In this document: one piece after another, positions 5,001 through 26,089 of the stretch
How the letters are laid out: every line of letters starts with the position of its first letter
How positions within the stretch are numbered: position 1 is the first letter of the stretch
Assembly (NCBI GenBank): GCA_042568575.1
Contig: JBHPIO010000001.1
Span: 32,001 to 96,000 of the forward strand
Direction of reading: 5' to 3'
Source of the DNA: Patescibacteria group bacterium
GTDB taxonomy: Bacteria > Patescibacteriota > Gracilibacteria > UBA1369 > PNNO01
Length of the DNA stretch: 64,000 nucleotides
Position numbers and translations under genes: made by a program
The notes under the pieces: generated by a model
The model's input: the letters and a program-made list of their open reading frames with translations, nothing else
Database searches by the model: none
Told to the model about the DNA's origin: nothing

Positions 5001-7628
5001 GTGAAAGAAATAGCAAAAGCTTATACTCCCAAAGAATACGAAGATTCTATATATAAAAAATGGGAAGATTCAGGAGTCTTTACTCCAAAAGTAGACTCTA
5101 GTAAGAAATCATTCACGATATCGATGCCGCCTCCAAATGCGACTGGAACACTTCATTTAGGTCATGCCACAATGCTAGCGCTTGAAGATTTAATGATTAG
5201 ATATAAAAGGATGCGGGGATTTTCTGCTTTGTGGCTGCCAGGGACGGATCATGCTGCTATTGCCACTCAAAATAGAGTAGAGAAAAATCTTGCAGAGAAG
5301 GGGATTGATCGTCATGAACTTGGAAGAGAAAAGTTTTTGGAAGAGGTTGGGAAATTTGTTGAAGATTCGCGTGATACGATTAGAAAGCAAATAAGAAAAA
5401 TGGGATCTAGCTGCGATTGGACTCGTGAAAGATTCACTCTTGATGAAGGTCTAACAAGAGCGGTACGTGAGGTTTTCACTAGAATGTATAAAGACAATCT
5501 TATCTATAAAGGAAATCGTATTGTTAACTGGTGTCCGCGTTGTGAGTCTACACTTGCAGATGATGAAGTTGAGTATAAAGAAAAGCAGGATAAACTTTAT
5601 TGGATTAAATATGGACCGTTTACTTTGGCTACAACTCGTCCAGAAACAAAGCTTGGAGATACTGCTGTAGCAGTTCATCCTGATGATGAAAGGTATAAAG
5701 ATATGATTGGGAAAAAATATATGATCCCAGGCGTTCTTGGTGATTTTGAAGTGGTGGTTGTTGCAGATAAAGAAGTAGATCCAGAATTTGGATCAGGAGC
5801 GGTTAAAGTTACTCCAGCGCATAGTTTTGCGGATTTTGAAATTGCTCAAAGGAATAACGTTCCTTTAAAGCCAATTATTAATGAACAGGGTAGGATGATG
5901 GATAATTGTGGGAAGTATGCAGGAATGACAACAGACGAATGTCGTGAAGAAATTGTAAAAGATATGAAAAAGATGGGGCTCATCGAGAAAATTGAGGATT
6001 TTACACATAATCTTTCTGTTTGTTATAGATGTAAAACTACAGTAGAACCGCTCGTTTCTAAGCAGTGGTTTATTGCCGTTGATAAACCCGCAATTCAAGA
6101 TGGCGACAAAAAGATATCAATAAAGGAAAAAGCCCTAAAAGTTGTTAGAGAGGGAGATATAAAAATTGTTCCAGACCAATTTAATAAAACATATTTTCAT
6201 TGGATGGAAAATCTACATGACTGGTGTATCTCAAGGCAAATCTGGTACGGGCACCAGATTCCTGTGTGGTATTGCCAGGATTGTGACGAACAAATAGTTC
6301 AAACAGATGATCCTGAAAGTTGTACTAAATGTAAAAGCAAAAATATAAAGCAGGATTTAGATACTTTAGATACATGGTTCTCATCTGGGCTTTGGACTTT
6401 CTCTACATTAGGTTGGCCAGATCAGACCGAAGAACTGAAGTATTTCCACCCTACGGCAGTTATGGAGACTGGATACGACATCCTATTCTTCTGGATTGCA
6501 CGCATGATTATAATGACGACTTATGCCCTTAACGAAATTCCTTTTGAAACCGTATATCTGCATGGATTAATCCGTACTCGAGATGGAAAGAAGATGTCGA
6601 AGTCAGCTCCTGAGACATGTATAGATCCGCTTGAAATGATTGATAAATACGGAACTGATGCCTTGCGGTTGAGTTTCCTTATCGGGTCGGCTCCGGGAAA
6701 TGATATGCGTTTATATGAAGAGAAAATCGCCGGTTACAGAAATTTCGTAAATAAGATTTGGAATGCTGCAAGATTCTCTTTAATGAATATTGAAGAAGAG
6801 AATCTAGATGAGACTTTCGATCCTAAAAATCATGTAAATTCACGTGCTGATAAATGGATTCTCACAAAACTGCAATATCTGGTAAAAGATGTGACAAATG
6901 ACATTGAGAATTACAGGTTCTCGGATGCTGGAACAAAGATCTACAATTTCACTTGGTCTGAATATTGCGATTGGTATGTTGAGTTGAGTAAGGGTGAACA
7001 TTTGAACCCACATGTTTTAGTGCATGTACTAAAATCGGTTCTTAGGTTGCTACATCCTTTCGTACCTTTCTTTACTGAGGTATTATGGGAAAACTTACAT
7101 GAAAAGAAGATGCTTATCGAAGAGACTTGGCCTGAATATGATAAGTCATTAGTCTTCGTGAAAGAAGTTGAGGAAATGGAGCTATTGCATCAGGTTATTT
7201 CGGATATTAGAAGCATGAGAGCTGAATATAGCGTTGAACCGGCTAAGAAGATTCATGCGGTAATTTATGGAGGTAAATATAAGGATTTCCTTGAAGAAAA
7301 GCGCGAACCACTTATGAGGATGGCTCGTTTAGAAAATCTTGAGATCTTTGAGAAAGGGGAGAAGATTGAAAAAGCTGTTTGCTTGTTTATAGGTGATATG
7401 GAAATATATCTGCCTCTGAATGAGTTGATAGATACAGAAAAAGAACAGAAGAGACTTGAGAAAGAGCTTGAAAATCTTGTTAGTTTTGAGAAAACTTTAT
7501 CAGGGAAATTGAAGAACAAAAAATTTGTTCAGAATGCGCCGGATGAGGTAGTAGAAAAAGAAAAAAAGAGGTTGGAAGAAACTCAGGTTGGGATTAAAAA
7601 GATTAAGGAAAAGCTCTCGGAACTATAA
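5001..7628 (+). CDS. valS: Valine--tRNA ligase
   Basis: PPPNATGTLHLGH, DWCISRQ, KMSKS, C-terminal coiled coil; GTG start. Confidence 0.98.
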   Translation: MKEIAKAYTPKEYEDSIYKKWEDSGVFTPKVDSSKKSFTISMPPPNATGTLHLGHATMLALEDLMIRYKRMRGFSALWLPGTDHAAIATQNRVEKNLAEKGIDRHELGREKFLEEVGKFVEDSRDTIRKQIRKMGSSCDWTRERFTLDEGLTRAVREVFTRMYKDNLIYKGNRIVNWCPRCESTLADDEVEYKEKQDKLYWIKYGPFTLATTRPETKLGDTAVAVHPDDERYKDMIGKKYMIPGVLGDFEVVVVADKEVDPEFGSGAVKVTPAHSFADFEIAQRNNVPLKPIINEQGRMMDNCGKYAGMTTDECREEIVKDMKKMGLIEKIEDFTHNLSVCYRCKTTVEPLVSKQWFIAVDKPAIQDGDKKISIKEKALKVVREGDIKIVPDQFNKTYFHWMENLHDWCISRQIWYGHQIPVWYCQDCDEQIVQTDDPESCTKCKSKNIKQDLDTLDTWFSSGLWTFSTLGWPDQTEELKYFHPTAVMETGYDILFFWIARMIIMTTYALNEIPFETVYLHGLIRTRDGKKMSKSAPETCIDPLEMIDKYGTDALRLSFLIGSAPGNDMRLYEEKIAGYRNFVNKIWNAARFSLMNIEEENLDETFDPKNHVNSRADKWILTKLQYLVKDVTNDIENYRFSDAGTKIYNFTWSEYCDWYVELSKGEHLNPHVLVHVLKSVLRLLHPFVPFFTEVLWENLHEKKMLIEETWPEYDKSLVFVKEVEEMELLHQVISDIRSMRAEYSVEPAKKIHAVIYGGKYKDFLEEKREPLMRMARLENLEIFEKGEKIEKAVCLFIGDMEIYLPLNELIDTEKEQKRLEKELENLVSFEKTLSGKLKNKKFVQNAPDEVVEKEKKRLEETQVGIKKIKEKLSEL

Positions 7629-19016: not shown

Positions 19017-19271
19017 ATGAAAAAACGAAAGCCAAAGTGGGATATGCTCTCTGACAAAAGGAGGCAAAAGTGCATAAACGATATTATTGGTTTTTTTGAG
19101 ACTGAGCGAGACACCAAGATAGGCGTTATTGCCGCTGGAGAGGTGCTTGATTTCTTCATGGAACAACTTGCCGAGGATATTTACAACAACGGCGTTGAAG
19201 ACGCTAAGAACGTCTTTAAAGGTAAGCTGGAGGATTTGGAGATTGACTTGGAGATGCTGGGAAGTGGGTAG
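19017..19271 (+). CDS. DUF2164-family protein
   Basis: I..FF..ERD..IG.IAA..VLDFF....A..IYN.GV.DA pattern. Confidence 0.75.
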   Translation: MKKRKPKWDMLSDKRRQKCINDIIGFFETERDTKIGVIAAGEVLDFFMEQLAEDIYNNGVEDAKNVFKGKLEDLEIDLEMLGSG

Positions 19272-19315: not shown

Positions 19316-19762
19316 ATGAATGAAAATATAACAATCTATATAGCAATCTATGGAGCCATATTATCCACTATTGTGCTTATCTGGAACATTATTAAATATT
19401 ACTTAGATAAAGGTAGAATGGAACTAAATTGTATGCTTGGTAATATCGTTGGCTATAGAGTCAATGATAAAAAGTTATACCTCACCTATACAGTCACTAA
19501 TAAAGGGAATAAACCAATAACGATAACTCATGCAGGAGGAATTTACGAGAATAAACAAAATTTTTTGGTTAATGCTACAGAAATCCCAAAGAAATTAGAG
19601 CATGGTGAATATGTTACTATCAAAACTCCTGATCTTGAAAATCTTAAAGATATAAAAAAACTATATGTTGTTAATTCATTAGGACAATATTGCTATCTAA
19701 AAAGAAAAAAAATTAAAAAATTAAAAGAAAGTCTTAAAAAATACGTCTTCGGTTCATCGTAA
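19316..19762 (+). CDS. Hypothetical single-TM protein (cassette ORF)
   Basis: 148 aa, N-terminal TM, very AT-rich. Confidence 0.7.
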   Translation: MNENITIYIAIYGAILSTIVLIWNIIKYYLDKGRMELNCMLGNIVGYRVNDKKLYLTYTVTNKGNKPITITHAGGIYENKQNFLVNATEIPKKLEHGEYVTIKTPDLENLKDIKKLYVVNSLGQYCYLKRKKIKKLKESLKKYVFGSS

Positions 19763-19829
19763 ATGCTCGTACGGTGTAGCACTTCGTGCTAACATTGTAT
19801 GAAACACACAAAATATTAATTCTTTATAT

Positions 19830-20574: not shown

Positions 20575-20692
20575 TCATAATACAGTGCACTCTTTCGCTT
20601 TGTTCAATCGTTTATCCAAGTTTTCGATGCGGCTTTTTGTTTCGCTCATATTGTACAGCATCTCAAATTCGCATATACTACAACTGTTAAGT
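20575..20692 (+). repeat. Degenerate attC-like site
   Basis: Starts with a decayed R'' (TCATAATAC) and ends TCGCATATACTACAACT-GTTAAGT (perfect GTTRRRY at 20686-20692). Confidence 0.55.
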
Positions 20693-20723: not shown

Positions 20724-21581
20724 ATGGTAGAAAATAAGCCAGAACCAATCAATGAAGATGACCTTCCTGAATCAATACATGCTCAGTTAGCCAAAATTAC
20801 AGATGAAGGTAAGCGGAAAAGTCACGCACGATTTGTCCTTGCAGCTTTAGGAAGTATACCTTGGGTCGGCGGATTCCTAGGCGCAATGGCAGCAAAAGAT
20901 GCTGAAAAAGAACAAGGAGGTATAAATCAGCTTCAACAGTTATGGCTACAAGAACATGAAGAAAAGATACAAAAACTCGGTTACGTCTTGTTTCAAATTC
21001 TCTCGCGGCTTGAAAAATTTGGCGAAGAAATAGAAGAAAGGATAGAATCGTCTCATTATTTAGATCTTGTTCGAAAAGGATTTAGATCTTGGGATCAAGC
21101 AGATACCGAAGAGAAACGAGAGCTAATCAAGAAATTATTAACCAGTGCAGGGGCAATCAAGCTCTGCCCAGATGATCTTGTACGACTATTTATTGATTGG
21201 ATAGATAAATACCATGAGGCTCATTTCAAAGTAATTAAAGAGATATATCAAAAGCCAGGCATCACTCGAGGCGATATTTGGGATAACGTAAAAGGTGAAA
21301 GACCGCGAGAGGATTCTGCTGAAGCTGATTTATTCAAACTATTGATCCATGACCTCAATGTAGGCCGTGTAATAAGGCAAGCAAGGGATACGGATGGAGC
21401 GGGGAATTTCTTAAAAAAAACACGTGTTAAGTCGGCACGTGGATTAAGCCCTTCAAGAACAATGGAATCCGCCTTTGAAAATTCTAAACCATATGTACTA
21501 ACAGAATTAGGTAAGCAATTCGTGCATTACACTATGGAAGAAGTGGTTACACAAATAGAAGATCAAAAACACAGTACTTAA
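20724..21581 (+). CDS. Abi-alpha/DUF4393-like protein (cassette ORF)
   Basis: SIPWVG N-terminal helix pair; C-terminal winged-helix-like YVLTELGKQFV; family call from motif memory only. Confidence 0.5.
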   Translation: MVENKPEPINEDDLPESIHAQLAKITDEGKRKSHARFVLAALGSIPWVGGFLGAMAAKDAEKEQGGINQLQQLWLQEHEEKIQKLGYVLFQILSRLEKFGEEIEERIESSHYLDLVRKGFRSWDQADTEEKRELIKKLLTSAGAIKLCPDDLVRLFIDWIDKYHEAHFKVIKEIYQKPGITRGDIWDNVKGERPREDSAEADLFKLLIHDLNVGRVIRQARDTDGAGNFLKKTRVKSARGLSPSRTMESAFENSKPYVLTELGKQFVHYTMEEVVTQIEDQKHST

Positions 21582-21603
21582 CAGCGGGCTAGTCGGTTCG
21601 CTC
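21576..21603 (+). repeat. attC-like left arm, copy 1
   Basis: ACTTAAC (RYYYAAC) then AGCGGGCTAGTCGGTTCGCTC; 21580-21603 is 23/24 identical to 22392-22415. Confidence 0.7.
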
Positions 21604-21618
21604 ACTAAAATTTTTTTT

Positions 21619-21894
21619 ATGAAAATCTTATTAAGAAAATACGTAACAGTTACACTATTACTACTAATCATTTTGACTTTAAGTGGTTGTGCATCGCAGC
21701 CGACGATCAGTGACTATGGCCCAGGTTTCTTTGTAGGATTATGGCATGGAATTATTTCTCCATTCGCTTTAATTGGGAGTATTTTTATGGACATACGTAT
21801 ATACGAATTCCCTAATTCTGGATTTTGGTATGACCTAGGTTTCATAATAGGAATAGGCTGCTGGGGAGGTGGGGCAGCCGCAGCACATGATTAA
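21619..21894 (+). CDS. Small membrane lipoprotein
   Basis: Lipobox LSGC; PGFF.GLWHG...IYE..N.G.WYD.GF..G pattern. Confidence 0.8.
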   Translation: MKILLRKYVTVTLLLLIILTLSGCASQPTISDYGPGFFVGLWHGIISPFALIGSIFMDIRIYEFPNSGFWYDLGFIIGIGCWGGGAAAAHD

Positions 21895-21911
21895 GACACA
21901 AAAAAGACAAT

Positions 21912-21994
21912 GCTCGCTAACCCAAATTTGGCGGTGGTGCGTTAACGCGCTATTATAACCACTGCCAAGCATCGTATATGTCGAAAAGTTGTAC
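21912..21994 (+). repeat. attC-like palindromic site (composite/degenerate)
   Basis: CGCTAAC at 21915; inverted repeat TTGGCGGTGGT (21928-21938) / ACCACTGCCAA (21958-21968); GTTGTAC at 21988-21994. Confidence 0.6.
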
Positions 21995-22050
21995 GAAATG
22001 CCAAATTAAGTTAGCCTTACAAAGGCTAATTTCTTAACAGAATATAAAAA

Positions 22051-22371
22051 ATGGCTACATATTTAGTATTATTCACTGCTATAACATTTTCTATAATGTG
22101 TATTTCATACAAAGCATTTGCAATCCAAAAAAGATGGGCAATTGGTAAAATATTATCCAAAGATGCATCTTTTCCAATAATAGCAGCTATCGCTACAGGT
22201 TTATGGGCACTTTATAAATCATTTGTTTATTTTGAATGGTGGACTCCTTTTGCAATATTGATCCTTGCATGGATTACGTCATTTTTATTAACTATTTTAT
22301 TCAAAAAGCATACTCAAATTCTGTGTATATTAGGTATTATTCCAGCTTTAATTGCAGTTGCACTAATATAA
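22051..22371 (+). CDS. Small integral membrane protein (cassette ORF)
   Basis: 106 aa, about four hydrophobic segments, bracketed by complementary R boxes. Confidence 0.7.
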   Translation: MATYLVLFTAITFSIMCISYKAFAIQKRWAIGKILSKDASFPIIAAIATGLWALYKSFVYFEWWTPFAILILAWITSFLLTILFKKHTQILCILGIIPALIAVALI

Positions 22372-22385
22372 ATTAGTTTGGTACA

Positions 22386-22415
22386 TCGTACAACAGCGGG
22401 CTAGCCGGTTCGCTC
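22386..22415 (+). repeat. attC-like left arm, copy 2
   Basis: TCGTACAAC-AGCGGGCTAGCCGGTTCGCTC. Confidence 0.7.
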
Positions 22416-22447
22416 CGCTAAATAAAATTATTCGTAACATTCTTCAG

Positions 22448-22906
22448 ATGAAAAAACTCCTTTTAATTCTAACTATCTTACTACTTGCAGGTTGTAATTC
22501 AACAACATCAAATATAATGGGCGAAAAAGTAGAAATCGAAAAACCAAAAGAAAACAAAATACTATCTCAAGAGCAATATTCACTTAGTTGTAAAACTCAT
22601 TATTACACTGATATTACAATTGGAGGTGATATTATTGAAGAATCATATATAAAAATCTCAGAAGGTCATGAAAATGCAACAATAAATGTAAATAATGAAG
22701 CTGCTACTTTCTTTGGTGCGGATTTTATTGTTTTAGATGATAACCCTTCATATCTTGTTATGATGAGATACTATGATGTAAGCGGATTGACTGAAGTTGT
22801 ATCAATTAATAAAGATACTGGTATTGGTTTTGATATAAAAACTCTAACTTTTGGTTTTTCTGGTGCTCCAAATACTACTACATATTTGATTAACTGTTAC
22901 GAATAA
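22448..22906 (+). CDS. Lipoprotein, unknown function
   Basis: MKK + hydrophobic core + LAGC lipobox. Confidence 0.8.
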   Translation: MKKLLLILTILLLAGCNSTTSNIMGEKVEIEKPKENKILSQEQYSLSCKTHYYTDITIGGDIIEESYIKISEGHENATINVNNEAATFFGADFIVLDDNPSYLVMMRYYDVSGLTEVVSINKDTGIGFDIKTLTFGFSGAPNTTTYLINCYE

Positions 22907-22930
22907 TTTTATTTTTTAATTATTATTAAT

Positions 22931-23341
22931 ATGAAAAAAGTTTTCATTCTCCTTGTTATTTTTGCTTTATTACTTACAGGTTGTTCAAATGGTAATCCTG
23001 ATCTTTCATATAAACAAGAATGTCGCGAACTTGTTAATGATGTTAAAGATGAATTCAATAACTTTAATAAAGAATACTTTGGGATAAAAGAAAAACATCT
23101 AGATTCTATTCAATACAGTAAAAGCAAAAATACATGTATAAGTAAAATAAAGGTTTATTATACTAATGGAAGGGCTGAAACCGTTTATAGAGATGAATTA
23201 ACTTCGAAAGAATTAACCTATTTTGTTCAATCATACGATGATATATCTGTTGAAATAGCGGAGAATGAAAACATCAACTTTATAGCTGAAGAAAGTAAGC
23301 GACAAGAGGAATACGAAAAAGAGCTGCAATTAATAGAATAA
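22931..23341 (+). CDS. Lipoprotein, unknown function
   Basis: MKK + hydrophobic core + LTGC lipobox. Confidence 0.8.
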   Translation: MKKVFILLVIFALLLTGCSNGNPDLSYKQECRELVNDVKDEFNNFNKEYFGIKEKHLDSIQYSKSKNTCISKIKVYYTNGRAETVYRDELTSKELTYFVQSYDDISVEIAENENINFIAEESKRQEEYEKELQLIE

Positions 23342-23361
23342 CTAGCCCATGGCCGTTAGAC
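23341..23361 (+). repeat. attC-like right arm
   Basis: ACTAGCCC-ATG-GCC-GTTAGAC; CTAGCCC is the reverse complement of GGGCTAG in both left arms; perfect GTTRRRY at 23355-23361. Confidence 0.65.
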
Positions 23362-23383
23362 GAAAGCCCTTAAAATAAAAAAG

Positions 23384-24055
23384 ATGGATGACGAATTAAT
23401 AAAAATTGTTTTTGAAGATTTGGACTATATAACAAAGGAATGGAACGCTAAGGAAATTAGTGATGCTAATTTGCGCCATTCAAGTACGATCTTAAGAACT
23501 CTTTTAATTGAGAGGAAACTATTTGATGTCGCTCGTTCATTTGATATCCAGAAAATAAGGATAATGAGCTCTAATGAAGATTCTCCATCTTGGCCAGACC
23601 CAGTGCTCCACCAAGCTGGGGGAGGAAAGCATAAAGGATTAAAAATTGATGGATTTTCTGTTTATAACAAGACATTTACTTCACAAGAAATAAAAGAAAA
23701 AAGCAAAATCGCACTAGCACGTAAAAGCAAACCAATAGAATTAAATAAATACTTAAAGAATTCAAGTATAATTATCAATGGTATTGAAATAAACAGAGAA
23801 GAAATAATTAAATATGTTAGCAACAAACTTGGTGGAGCACATTACGATAAAAAAAGAGGGGACCCACTAAATAAAGAAGGAAATATTAGCCTGGAAGGTA
23901 AATATGCACTATTAGATGATTATAAAAACTCGAATAAACTCGCTGGAAAAAACTCCATTTATTTCGAATTACTTGAAATTGGACAAAAATTGGTTAATAA
24001 CCGCGATATTCAAAAACTAAAAAAGAAAATTAAAATTTATTTACAAAAAAGATGA
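23384..24055 (+). CDS. Hypothetical protein with an NKLGGAHYD motif (possibly HEPN-like; cassette ORF)
   Basis: S.ILR.LL near the N-terminus and REEIIKYVSNKLGGAHYD. Confidence 0.6.
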   Translation: MDDELIKIVFEDLDYITKEWNAKEISDANLRHSSTILRTLLIERKLFDVARSFDIQKIRIMSSNEDSPSWPDPVLHQAGGGKHKGLKIDGFSVYNKTFTSQEIKEKSKIALARKSKPIELNKYLKNSSIIINGIEINREEIIKYVSNKLGGAHYDKKRGDPLNKEGNISLEGKYALLDDYKNSNKLAGKNSIYFELLEIGQKLVNNRDIQKLKKKIKIYLQKR

Positions 24056-24185
24056 AGGATTTTTTCACAAACCTGGACTTCTGTTGCAGAACTCCTTGGT
24101 CCTCTCCCCCTTACGGGCTCGAGATAAGTTCTCTTCCTACTCGTAGAACCTCAAAGAGGCTCCACTCGTAGCAAGTGGGAACTTA

Positions 24186-24262
24186 TGGTGGCAAGGGTGG
24201 GGATCGAACCCACGACCTCGGGCTTATGAGTCCCGCGCTCTAACCAACTGAGCTACCTTGCC
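24186..24262 (-). tRNA. tRNA-Met(CAT), probably elongator
   Basis: GGCAAGGTAGCTCAGTTGGTTAGAGC...CTCATAA...GGTTCGATCCCCACCCTTGCCACCA; paired G1-C72; encoded CCA. Ile2 identity not excluded. Confidence 0.93.
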
Positions 24263-24318: not shown

Positions 24319-25068
24319 TTAAAATGTTTTTATACTGAAATTAAACAAAACTCTGGCAGGTACAACCAGATTTGGATTATTTGGTGGAATTTTTTCAAGT
24401 TGTGGTGGACTGTGCATCGGTTCAAAATAATATTCTTTTCCTTCACGATAAATTCGTTTCACACTTAGGTCGCCTTTATAGAGGATGGCAAATAGCTTTC
24501 CACTGTTGTCCTCAATGTCGTTGTTTTTAATAGGCTCCATAATAATCACATCACCCAAATAAATACCAAATTCGGGATAATCTCTTATGAAGATTCGTAC
24601 GGCAACAAGCTCTTCAAGCGACTTATGATAATGCAGGGTATCTTTCATATACGACCTAGAGACGTAAATGAAATTATTGGAACTCTTTCTTAATTCATAC
24701 AGTTGCTCAAAGGTTTTATTTCGCAGCTTTGTGTTGTCGAGTAGGGGAATAGCAGCCACATCATCCTGGAAATCCCTGCTAATGTCCGTTTCTATCAAAG
24801 AAACCAGCTTGTCCCACTTCTTTGCTTTATCAACATAAGAAAGCAGGCCAGGCTTGTCCTCACCAAGGAAATAACCGATTGGTTTTTTTAGATATTCCGC
24901 GATTTTCATTAACTCGGAAATTTTAGGTAGATAGCGTCCTTTAGTGATATTCGAGACGTAGGCACGTGACTTTTGAATCATTTGAGCCAGCTCTATTTGC
25001 GAAACCTCTCGTTCTTTAAGTGCAGCCTTAATTCGCTCTGCTATAAGTTTTGTAAATTTCTCGTTCAT
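24319..25068 (-). CDS. XRE-family HTH regulator with a degenerate S24 (LexA/CI-like) C-terminal domain
   Basis: SQIELAQMI.KSRAYVSNI..G...P....L.KIA..L; C-terminal GDVII...GKLFAILY.GDLSVKRI. Confidence 0.8.
   Translation of the reverse strand: MNEKFTKLIAERIKAALKEREVSQIELAQMIQKSRAYVSNITKGRYLPKISELMKIAEYLKKPIGYFLGEDKPGLLSYVDKAKKWDKLVSLIETDISRDFQDDVAAIPLLDNTKLRNKTFEQLYELRKSSNNFIYVSRSYMKDTLHYHKSLEELVAVRIFIRDYPEFGIYLGDVIIMEPIKNNDIEDNSGKLFAILYKGDLSVKRIYREGKEYYFEPMHSPPQLEKIPPNNPNLVVPARVLFNFSIKTF

Positions 25069-26014: not shown

Positions 26015-26089
<75 letters not shown>

Follow-up and report, generated by a model that had tools for sequence, protein, structure and literature searches.

Genes inside the variable arm of a subfamily of integron-type attC sites from Patescibacteria

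Can a recombination site of the integron type hold a gene within its own hairpin? The question is raised by a 64,000-nucleotide (nt) stretch of DNA from a Patescibacteria group bacterium (assembly GCA_042568575.1, contig JBHPIO010000001.1, positions 32,001 to 96,000 of the forward strand; the whole stretch is called the window here), in which small open reading frames (ORFs) follow one another in series on the same strand at about 19.3-24.1 kb, bounded by a tRNA-Met gene. An earlier note on this DNA had seen there the halves of attC-like sites set apart by lipoprotein genes, and had suggested that surface lipoproteins are carried in the loop of a recombination hairpin. A survey of other genomes and metagenomes showed that genes do lie within such hairpins, at one fixed point and in a layout that recurs, but that the cargo is not restricted to lipoproteins. 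The reading that we favour, and consider probable, is that of a three-arm attC with a gene in its variable arm, which moves as a two-gene cassette. The window cluster itself is a decayed, integrase-less cluster of integron-type cassettes, two of which end in this special attC subfamily.

The ordinary form of the site is found on contig C12 of the same genome, where an 11-site attC-like array lies beside the gene of a XerA-like tyrosine recombinase, which is divergent from at least 11 cassettes separated by sites of 113-163 nt. Each of these sites reads CATC, R'' (RYYYAAC), A, L'' (about 11 nt), the block GGTTC(C)GCTCC, a short spacer, the block CTCGCTTCACCCAA, a hairpin with ATTATACC, L', GAAC, R' (GTTRRRY) and GAAAT. 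Ordinary attC sites here are three-armed, with stem 1 made up of R''/R' and L''/L', a variable arm 2 situated between the blocks GGTTC(C)GCTC and CTCGCT.ACCCA, and a conserved hairpin as stem 3. All 54 aligned sites have AAC-A and C-GTT, and the two spacers differ in length, R'' being separated from L'' by 1 nt and L' from R' by 4 nt, while L'' takes the form of 48 distinct 9-mers among 81 full sites. It covaries with L', the duplexes of full sites having energies of -10.9 kcal/mol for cognate and -5.0 kcal/mol for non-cognate pairs, with crude anchors and some sites mis-anchored. In the test of the R boxes below, the AAC was taken that gave the best pairing with L', which brings some circularity into the L''/L' measure and none into that test. 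On the MAFFT alignment of 54 sites, in which gaps misplace L''/L', RNAalifold found no more than part of stem 3, and pairing was scored per sequence instead; likewise nhmmer took the place of a search for AAC...GTT pairs flanking complementary inner arms, which was noisy and missed true sites. Classical attC sites usually have a length of about 57-141 nt and fold as one imperfect hairpin, whose bottom strand is marked by extrahelical bases and an unpaired central spacer. The ordinary sites of the present family measure 100-213 nt (about 113-170 nt in the arrays beside the recombinase) and with their three arms are not compact hairpins.

These sites carry the signature of cassettes. R'' is complementary to the R' box that opens its own cassette (on average at 6.41 of the 7 positions, and at all 7 in 37 of 61 cases), while its complementarity to the R' of the same attC (4.76/7) is that found with non-cognate boxes (4.78/7); such complementarity is what recombination at G|TT would leave. 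It continues for about 13 nt past the boxes (8.97/13 against 4.84 for non-cognate pairs), a feature that we do not know from classical integrons, and this explains why every cassette ORF in the window stands within its own long inverted repeat (I15, I2 and I3, at 19798/20559, 20684/21560 and 21988/22369), of which the left arm begins with GTT and the right arm ends with AAC. Similar repeats surround the ORFs of the arrays in loci L016-L018 and others.

The left arm that drew attention to the window, AACAGCGGGCTAG(T/C)CGGTTCGCTC, is 24 nt long and was confirmed at two places, 21580-21603 and 22392-22415 (two matches at up to 3 mismatches, 0.00 being expected from 100 shuffles). An exact search for its 10-nt core on both strands of the 1.2-Mb genome (31 contigs) found these two places and no other. 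It corresponds to R''-A-L''-GGTTCGCTC, the first 30 nt or so of the family consensus, with L'' being GCGGGCTAG. An arm-motif scan of one genome per prokaryote species and of the JGI metagenomes, with chance matches in high-GC genomes set aside, gave, with the window, 45 arms preceded by AAC, 37 of them unique. The contigs bearing them are labelled Peribacteria, Gracilibacteria, Saccharibacteria or Patescibacteria group, one is from a 'Promethearchaeota' metagenome-assembled genome (MAG), and others are unlabelled. When arm-to-arm distances were tabulated across these genomes and metagenomes, 31 of the 37 unique arms were found to be followed by the YTCGCT.ACCCA block, a hairpin, L' and R' at 223-604 nt downstream and by none nearer. 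Short empty versions of the site were looked for and there was none among the 37 unique arms. The six arms in which the junction was not detected are L137, L142, L162 and L164 (less than 1 kb of contig downstream), copy 2 of the window and L058; the right part of L164 was found later by nhmmer, about 300 nt downstream.

The break lies at a constant place within the site. Of 30 partial nhmmer matches in the loci, 27 were right parts with an arm 216-602 nt upstream, two were cut by contig ends and one was of another kind, and the 27 right parts begin at model positions 38-51 (one truncated match from 88), which is the same break point each time. Among 82 ordinary full attC sites of the same loci none has an L'' of the left-arm type, and arm 2 in these is 24 nt long in the median and at most about 50 nt (two mis-anchored outliers aside), with a short gene-free hairpin in about a quarter of them. 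Gene-bearing sites, by contrast, are estimated to be about 330-720 nt long. The two halves match across the gene: by reading, the L' of the split site pairs with the arm in 24 of the 27 right parts, the usual L''/L' pair being GGGCTAGCC/GGCTAGCCC, and two sites have the compensatory pair GGCATAGCC/GGCTATGCC on either side of the gene. The 'Promethearchaeota archaeon' MAG contig (L024) holds, at 320-2290, the same attC array, gene-bearing site included, as metagenome contig L154 and Patescibacteria-labelled contigs, and is either mis-binned or the product of transfer between domains.

In intact sites a further stem, which we call the clamp, stands at the base of the gene-bearing arm. The sequence directly 3' of GGTTCGCTC is an inverted repeat of that directly 5' of YTCGCT.ACCCA, and it varies from site to site. 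Scored by duplex energies (ungapped stem counts underestimate bulged stems), the flanks of one insert pair with each other at -11.95 kcal/mol compared to -5.31 for non-cognate flanks, and among 31 candidate partners the true one came first in 16 sites and was in the top three in 24. The homologous inserts of L024 and L117 show a compensatory change in the clamp, from TTATT/AATAA to TCATT/AATGA. Folding the bottom strand of L018:6008-6512, where the intact gene-bearing site spans 6011-6510, as DNA gave the L''/L' stem, stem 3 and the clamp together in both the minimum free energy and the centroid structures (z -4.35). It may be that the clamp serves the folding of the attC.

What lies in the arm is in nearly every case a gene: 30 of the 31 sites hold an ORF of at least 50 amino acids (aa) on the same strand, and the remaining one, L133, holds a lipoprotein gene on the opposite strand between its clamp arms (1362-1861), that is, an inverted module. 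The ORFs of the inserts encode 61-194 aa and belong to the Pfam families GNAT and HicA/HicB-like or to none. They are biased towards the cell envelope. A lipobox was found in 7 of 33 embedded ORFs and 1 of 52 ordinary cassette ORFs of the same arrays (Fisher p 0.005, with the 136-aa ORF of the window and the inverted gene of L133, both lipoproteins by eye, omitted from the count), an N-terminal hydrophobic segment in 24/33 against 12/52, and 26/33 were membrane-like against 13/52 (Fisher p 1.6e-6); the sequences are related among themselves and these tests overstate the significance. The idea that only lipoproteins are carried did not hold, as the embedded genes also include soluble ORFs and, by Pfam, a GNAT acetyltransferase and a HicB-like/HicA pair. 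Neither a transposase nor a reverse transcriptase was found with Pfam in the three embedded ORFs of the window and 10 from other loci. The three window ORFs gave no Pfam match above the cut-off; the 152-aa protein is 60% identical to the sole embedded gene product of an intact split attC on metagenome contig L155 and has as homologues nine unnamed proteins without a Pfam domain, and the 136-aa protein is 30% identical (E 5e-12) to that of the sole embedded gene of L141.

Embedded genes and main ORFs assort independently. The main ORFs 5' of split sites are mutually unrelated (27 compared, no match at E < 1e-5), and in a crude search for the upstream box 11 of 21 cassettes with split sites had an R'' perfectly complementary to their own R', from which it follows that main ORF and gene-bearing site form one cassette. 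L105 and L152 share their main ORF (75% over 332 nt) and both frames of the site and hold unrelated modules, the homology stopping right after GGTTCGCTC-GCTAA and restarting at CTCGCTCACCC. Conversely, homologous modules stand behind unrelated main ORFs in three pairs (L024/L117, the window and L155, L042/L146), and each of the two-gene inserts, in L146 and in window copy 2, joins genes that elsewhere stand alone in their sites, a small hairpin separating the two. To explain these arrangements no more is needed than homologous recombination within the conserved frames and, for the inversion, between the two arms of the clamp.

How, then, do the two window copies compare? Both are degenerate. 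The cluster has no match to the IntI integrase model in a profile search of its contig (C1), and a hidden Markov model made from the 11 C12 sites found no intact attC there with nhmmer; taken together, these two results lead us to read it as a decayed remnant. Clusters of attC sites lacking an integrase (CALIN) are defined by at least two attC sites with no integrase nearby. Elsewhere in the genome the model made from C12 gave two partial matches only, both in the window: one right part (21914-22001, model 46-135, E 1.2e-10) and one left part (22380-22419, model 2-42), to which reading by eye added a second left arm and one L'-R' end. Each left arm overlaps an R''-type box which closes the ORF before it, and neither is followed nearby by a GTTRRRY box with a matching L'. 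As the earlier note had it, the three lipobox ORFs of the array stand between such arms, and no lipobox was seen by eye in the five other listed ORFs, at 19316, 19830, 20724, 22051 and 23384.

Cassette A, which like all cluster features below is on the plus strand unless stated, begins with the R' box GTTAAGT (20686-20692), a perfect 7/7 complement of the R'' at 21576. This box lies in the left arm of the 25-nt inverted repeat I2 (20684-20708/21560-21584, 84% complementary), which surrounds the main ORF (20724-21581; 285 aa, no Pfam family). Copy 1 opens with R'' (ACTTAAC, 21576-21582), A, L'' (GCGGGCTAGTC) and GGTTCGCTC (21576-21603 in all), in parallel to the C12 consensus, and is followed by the embedded lipoprotein gene at 21619-21894 (91 aa, lipobox LSGC). 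The sequence TCGCTAACCCAAA at 21914, which had been taken for a decayed right arm, turned out to be the CTCGCT.ACCCA block that opens a near-complete attC right part (21913-21994; model 46-135, E 1.2e-10) comprising the CTCGCTAACCCAAA block, the stem-3 hairpin (21927-21969), L' (about 21973-21983) and R'. This right part is foreign to copy 1: its L' has no pairing with the L'' of copy 1, there is no clamp, and the two flanks of the insert show no more pairing with each other than unrelated ones do (rank 15 of 31). From its sequence copy 1 (21576-21994) is best read as a deletion which fused two sites, joining a left half to the right part of another attC. To that extent copy 1 is the deletion remnant that the earlier note had named as a refuting case; the lack of recurrence that it had named as well was not borne out, as the layout recurs in 31 of the 37 unique arms.

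The R' of that right part (GTTGTAC, 21988-21994) starts cassette B, whose main ORF (22051-22371; 106 aa, membrane-like) lies within the inverted repeat I3 (21988-22013/22369-22394, 81% complementary) and whose R'' is again 7/7 complementary to its own R'. Copy 2 (22388-23361) opens with R'' (GTACAAC, 22388-22394), A, L'' (GCGGGCTAGCC) and GGTTCGCTC, ending at 22415 (model 2-42). A clamp follows, a perfect 20-nt inverted repeat (I6, 100%; arms 22420-22439 and 22895-22914) that is paired in the DNA fold and surrounds the first embedded lipoprotein gene (22448-22906, 152 aa). A small AT-rich hairpin at about 22901-22923, with an analogue between both embedded genes of L146, separates it from the second (22931-23341, 136 aa). 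The right end at 23342-23361 consists of L' (CTAGCCC, 23342-23348), ATGGCC and R' (GTTAGAC, 23355-23361), as described before, and by reading 7 of 9 positions are paired with L'' and no bulge is needed. The inner hairpin (stem 3) and the conserved block have been lost, so that copy 2 is a degenerate site with two stacked embedded genes, of which the 152-aa one is clamped. When the bottom strand of 22380-23366 was folded, the outer arms and the clamp paired (z -4.07). The final ORF of the cluster (23384-24055, 223 aa) has no recognisable attC 3' of it and the bounding tRNA-Met gene is at 24186-24262 on the minus strand. A similar remnant was seen in L019 (G040:C1, about 7230-6800, minus strand), where an ORF of the embedded type comes after a decayed left arm and no right frame is present; the C-terminus of this ORF resembles by eye the L033/L146 family, and it adjoins a tRNA-like sequence as the window cluster adjoins tRNA-Met.

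The top family of the C12 recombinase (ORF at L017 8603-9457) is the XerA-type NF040815 (220.8 bits, cut-off 220). On the IntI model TIGR02249 it scored 195 bits with a cut-off of 265, matching in two stretches with model positions 183-236 skipped. In G006 and G010, too, the arrays have an orthologue (63-68% identity) encoded upstream of them on their own contig, the recombinase-linked arrays being those of C12 (locus L017, 1-9457), G006 (L016, L166) and G010 (L018, L165). The system works like an integron and is not classed in the IntI family; the term natural integron has to be used with reserve here, the recombinase beside the arrays being XerA-like and falling under the IntI cut-off. A reading of the inverted repeats as dif/Xer modules was considered and dropped, the integron model being in keeping with both the structure of the arrays and the R'/R'' signature of the cassettes. 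Stem 3, with its near-invariant ATTATAC(C) and TTGCCA-type start, resembles a sigma-70 promoter with a 17-nt spacer pointing to the next cassette (TGGTATAAT on the opposite strand). With at least 10 of 12 positions matching, this likeness was found in 13 forward, 1 reverse and 0 shuffled cases over 111 sites, and at 9 or more of 12 in 40 forward and 38 reverse cases with no strand preference, so the case for a promoter in stem 3 is a weak one.

On the reading of a gene-bearing three-arm attC, the subfamily with L'' = (G)CGGGCTAGCC is one in which arm 2 measures 223-604 nt and holds one or two genes. The covarying clamp, which adjoins both conserved blocks, would close the gene into a loop, and with the loop so closed the two attC halves could still meet and fold in single-stranded DNA (ssDNA). 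The main ORF together with the gene inside its attC would then be cut at R' like any other cassette, giving a two-gene cassette, and the integrase may still recombine the gene-bearing sites. The assortment of embedded genes would most likely come from homologous recombination in the conserved frames that flank the gene, which are about 30 nt and about 95 nt long.

Several points weigh against this reading. It leaves the first entry of a gene into arm 2 without explanation. A long variable terminal structure (VTS) is reported to cut recombination of classical sites by up to 4 logs under replication (PMC8946536), and with such a cost a loop of 300-600 nt should be a costly one. The same source reports that ssDNA delivery makes recombination independent of VTS length (PMC8946536); with length costly in replication and neutral in ssDNA, a clamp that closes the loop would be a sensible adaptation. 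The strand test no more than leans to the bottom strand, which was favoured in 18 sites against 6 for the top strand, with equal stability in 7 (p = 0.054), and the clamp would pair just as well in mRNA. The recombinase scored below the IntI cut-off with the IntI-specific stretch unmatched, and carrying IntI biology over to it is thus an assumption. The sample was gathered by the left-arm motif, so that the conservation of the arm is partly built in. Lastly, L' fails to pair with L'' in 3 of 27 right parts, those of window copy 1, L033 and L163, which are probably dead or rearranged.

The independent assortment could also mean that cassettes are nested, with the clamp and its gene forming a module that is exchanged by itself at the base of arm 2, in a site-specific or hairpin-directed manner, and the attC serving as a second-tier platform. 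Modules would then be inserted, swapped, stacked and inverted at the fixed point of arm 2 by the XerA-like integrase or a hairpin-specific enzyme; we regard both the arrangement and this agency as doubtful, though worth keeping in mind. The exact break of L105/L152 homology at the conserved blocks, with differing modules between, speaks for it, as do the two-gene inserts made of elsewhere-single genes with a hairpin between them, the inverted module of L133 and the direct repeats TCGCTC at the base of the clamp, and ordinary cassette ORFs likewise stand in covarying repeats beside conserved attC parts. However, lone embedded genes have single arms and not the full hairpin sites that insertion by an integrase would leave, the clamps are too diverse in sequence to be the recognition site of one recombinase, neither an empty site nor a free module was seen among the collected arms, and homologous recombination in the frames or clamp arms covers the swaps and the inversion with no new mechanism. 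Rather less likely, in our view, is that the clamp acts in RNA, pairing the 5' leader with the 3' end to stabilise or regulate the embedded mRNA while its position in attC is incidental. The arms do lie just 5' of the start codon and over the stop codon, and Watson-Crick covariation would be the same for DNA and RNA, with the strand test at 18 vs 6 (p = 0.054). Yet the clamp adjoins the conserved attC blocks and keeps no fixed distance to the start codon, one clamp surrounds two genes in L146, ordinary attC sites have gene-free short hairpins at the same place, and in L133, with its gene inverted, the clamp arms would flank an antisense transcript.

An attC-targeting insertion, be it a miniature inverted-repeat transposable element (MITE) or mobile insertion cassette, an insertion sequence (IS) or a group II intron, could have brought the genes in as passengers, given that inverted repeats bound each insert at one fixed position. 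IS1111-attC elements are known to target attC. So do group IIC-attC introns, according to a review (PMC8876359). This account is improbable: the inserts hold neither transposase nor reverse transcriptase (Pfam on the three embedded ORFs of the window and 10 from other loci), their terminal repeats vary from insert to insert and yet stay complementary, unlike the ends served by one transposase, and no empty target of the subfamily is in the sample (0/37), while the CGCTC repeats at the junctions are native to every ordinary attC and are therefore not target duplications. It is very improbable, finally, that the layout is an accident of decay in which cassettes were fused by deletions and the arms are remnants of unrelated attC sites. 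That account does fit window copy 1, with its mismatched L', lack of a clamp and normal right part, and may be extended to copy 2, which is without stem 3, and to the mismatched L' of L033 and L163; fused cassettes are described for class 1 integrons in the same review (PMC8876359). Against it, L'' and L' match in 24 of 27 split sites, in two of them through compensatory changes, the clamps covary, and the break point is constant (model 38-51) in a layout spread across contigs labelled Peribacteria, Gracilibacteria, Saccharibacteria and Patescibacteria group. With 0/82 ordinary sites in the subfamily, too, the recurrence already contradicts decay as the general cause.

With the gene-bearing three-arm attC as the preferred reading, the likeness to known systems is only partial. 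IntI integrons, for example the Vibrio arrays with their VCR sites, have the same ..AAC/GTT.. core boxes, covarying L''/L' and an R'' complementary to the start of its own cassette, and the same one-directional arrays beside a divergent tyrosine recombinase, with near-identical sites on unrelated genes. The present system departs from them in its XerA-like recombinase, in which the IntI-specific stretch is lacking, in its three-arm sites with about 13 nt of extra complementarity, and in having one subfamily with a gene inside. Fused cassettes such as blaOXA-10/aadA1 also have two ORFs with one functional attC, and copy 1 is most simply such a fusion, but the intact examples here miss nothing, as both attC halves flank the second gene, L'' and L' match and a clamp is present. 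Group IIC-attC introns and IS1111-attC elements share a defined place of insertion within attC, yet their ends are conserved and each encodes a reverse transcriptase or transposase of its own, unlike the cassette-type genes and variable ends found here. The attC sites with a long VTS, such as VCR, have a variable terminal structure that tolerates changes in length, whereas here the loops are of hundreds of nt, hold genes and are closed by a dedicated stem, for which there was no match in the literature searched. Synthetic attC sites in coding sequences (Nivina et al. 2020, PMC7439510) offer a similar nesting, although they are engineered with the site within the gene, the reverse of the present case. 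Searches of a limited library of papers, without their supplementary files, gave no description of integrons of Patescibacteria or candidate phyla and no genes inside attC.

Integron sites are regarded as short non-coding hairpins after the gene, and here a whole subfamily has genes within the hairpin, in poorly studied bacteria and with an array-linked recombinase outside the classical integron integrases. Activity of these sites, if it exists, would mean that structure-specific recombination copes with loops hundreds of nt long given a clamp, that one cassette could deliver two independently assorting genes, and that the lipoprotein and membrane bias offers a route to cell-surface variation in small episymbiotic bacteria. 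For the long-open question of cassette origin, these sites are a natural substrate in which the gene, the closing stem and the conserved core can be distinguished. Should the nested arrangement be true instead, integron-like elements of candidate phyla would shuffle genes at two nested levels, and a clamp-closed gene set on a conserved core might mirror the first making of cassettes.

Around the cluster, a DUF2164 protein (E 3.8e-20) is encoded at 19017-19271, directly 5' of the first cassette-like ORF. Between 19000 and 24300 there was no excess of promoter-like sites (23 against 22.7 in shuffles) or terminator-like sites (2 against 2.9). On its other side, between tRNA-Met 24186-24262 and tRNA-Met 26015-26089, lies a gene for a 249-aa protein (24319-25068, minus strand) with HTH_3 and a weak Peptidase_S24 match, a layout like that of LexA/CI-type repressors. 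An Rfam scan of the window at gathering thresholds gave three tRNAs and nothing else. A conserved element of about 85 nt, with no Rfam match at E up to 1, stands 3' of three tRNA genes (Met, Ile and Gln; window 24101-24185 on the minus strand, G000 C1:194730-194811 and C4:18783-18865), and it also matches the relatives G006, G008, G010 and G012.

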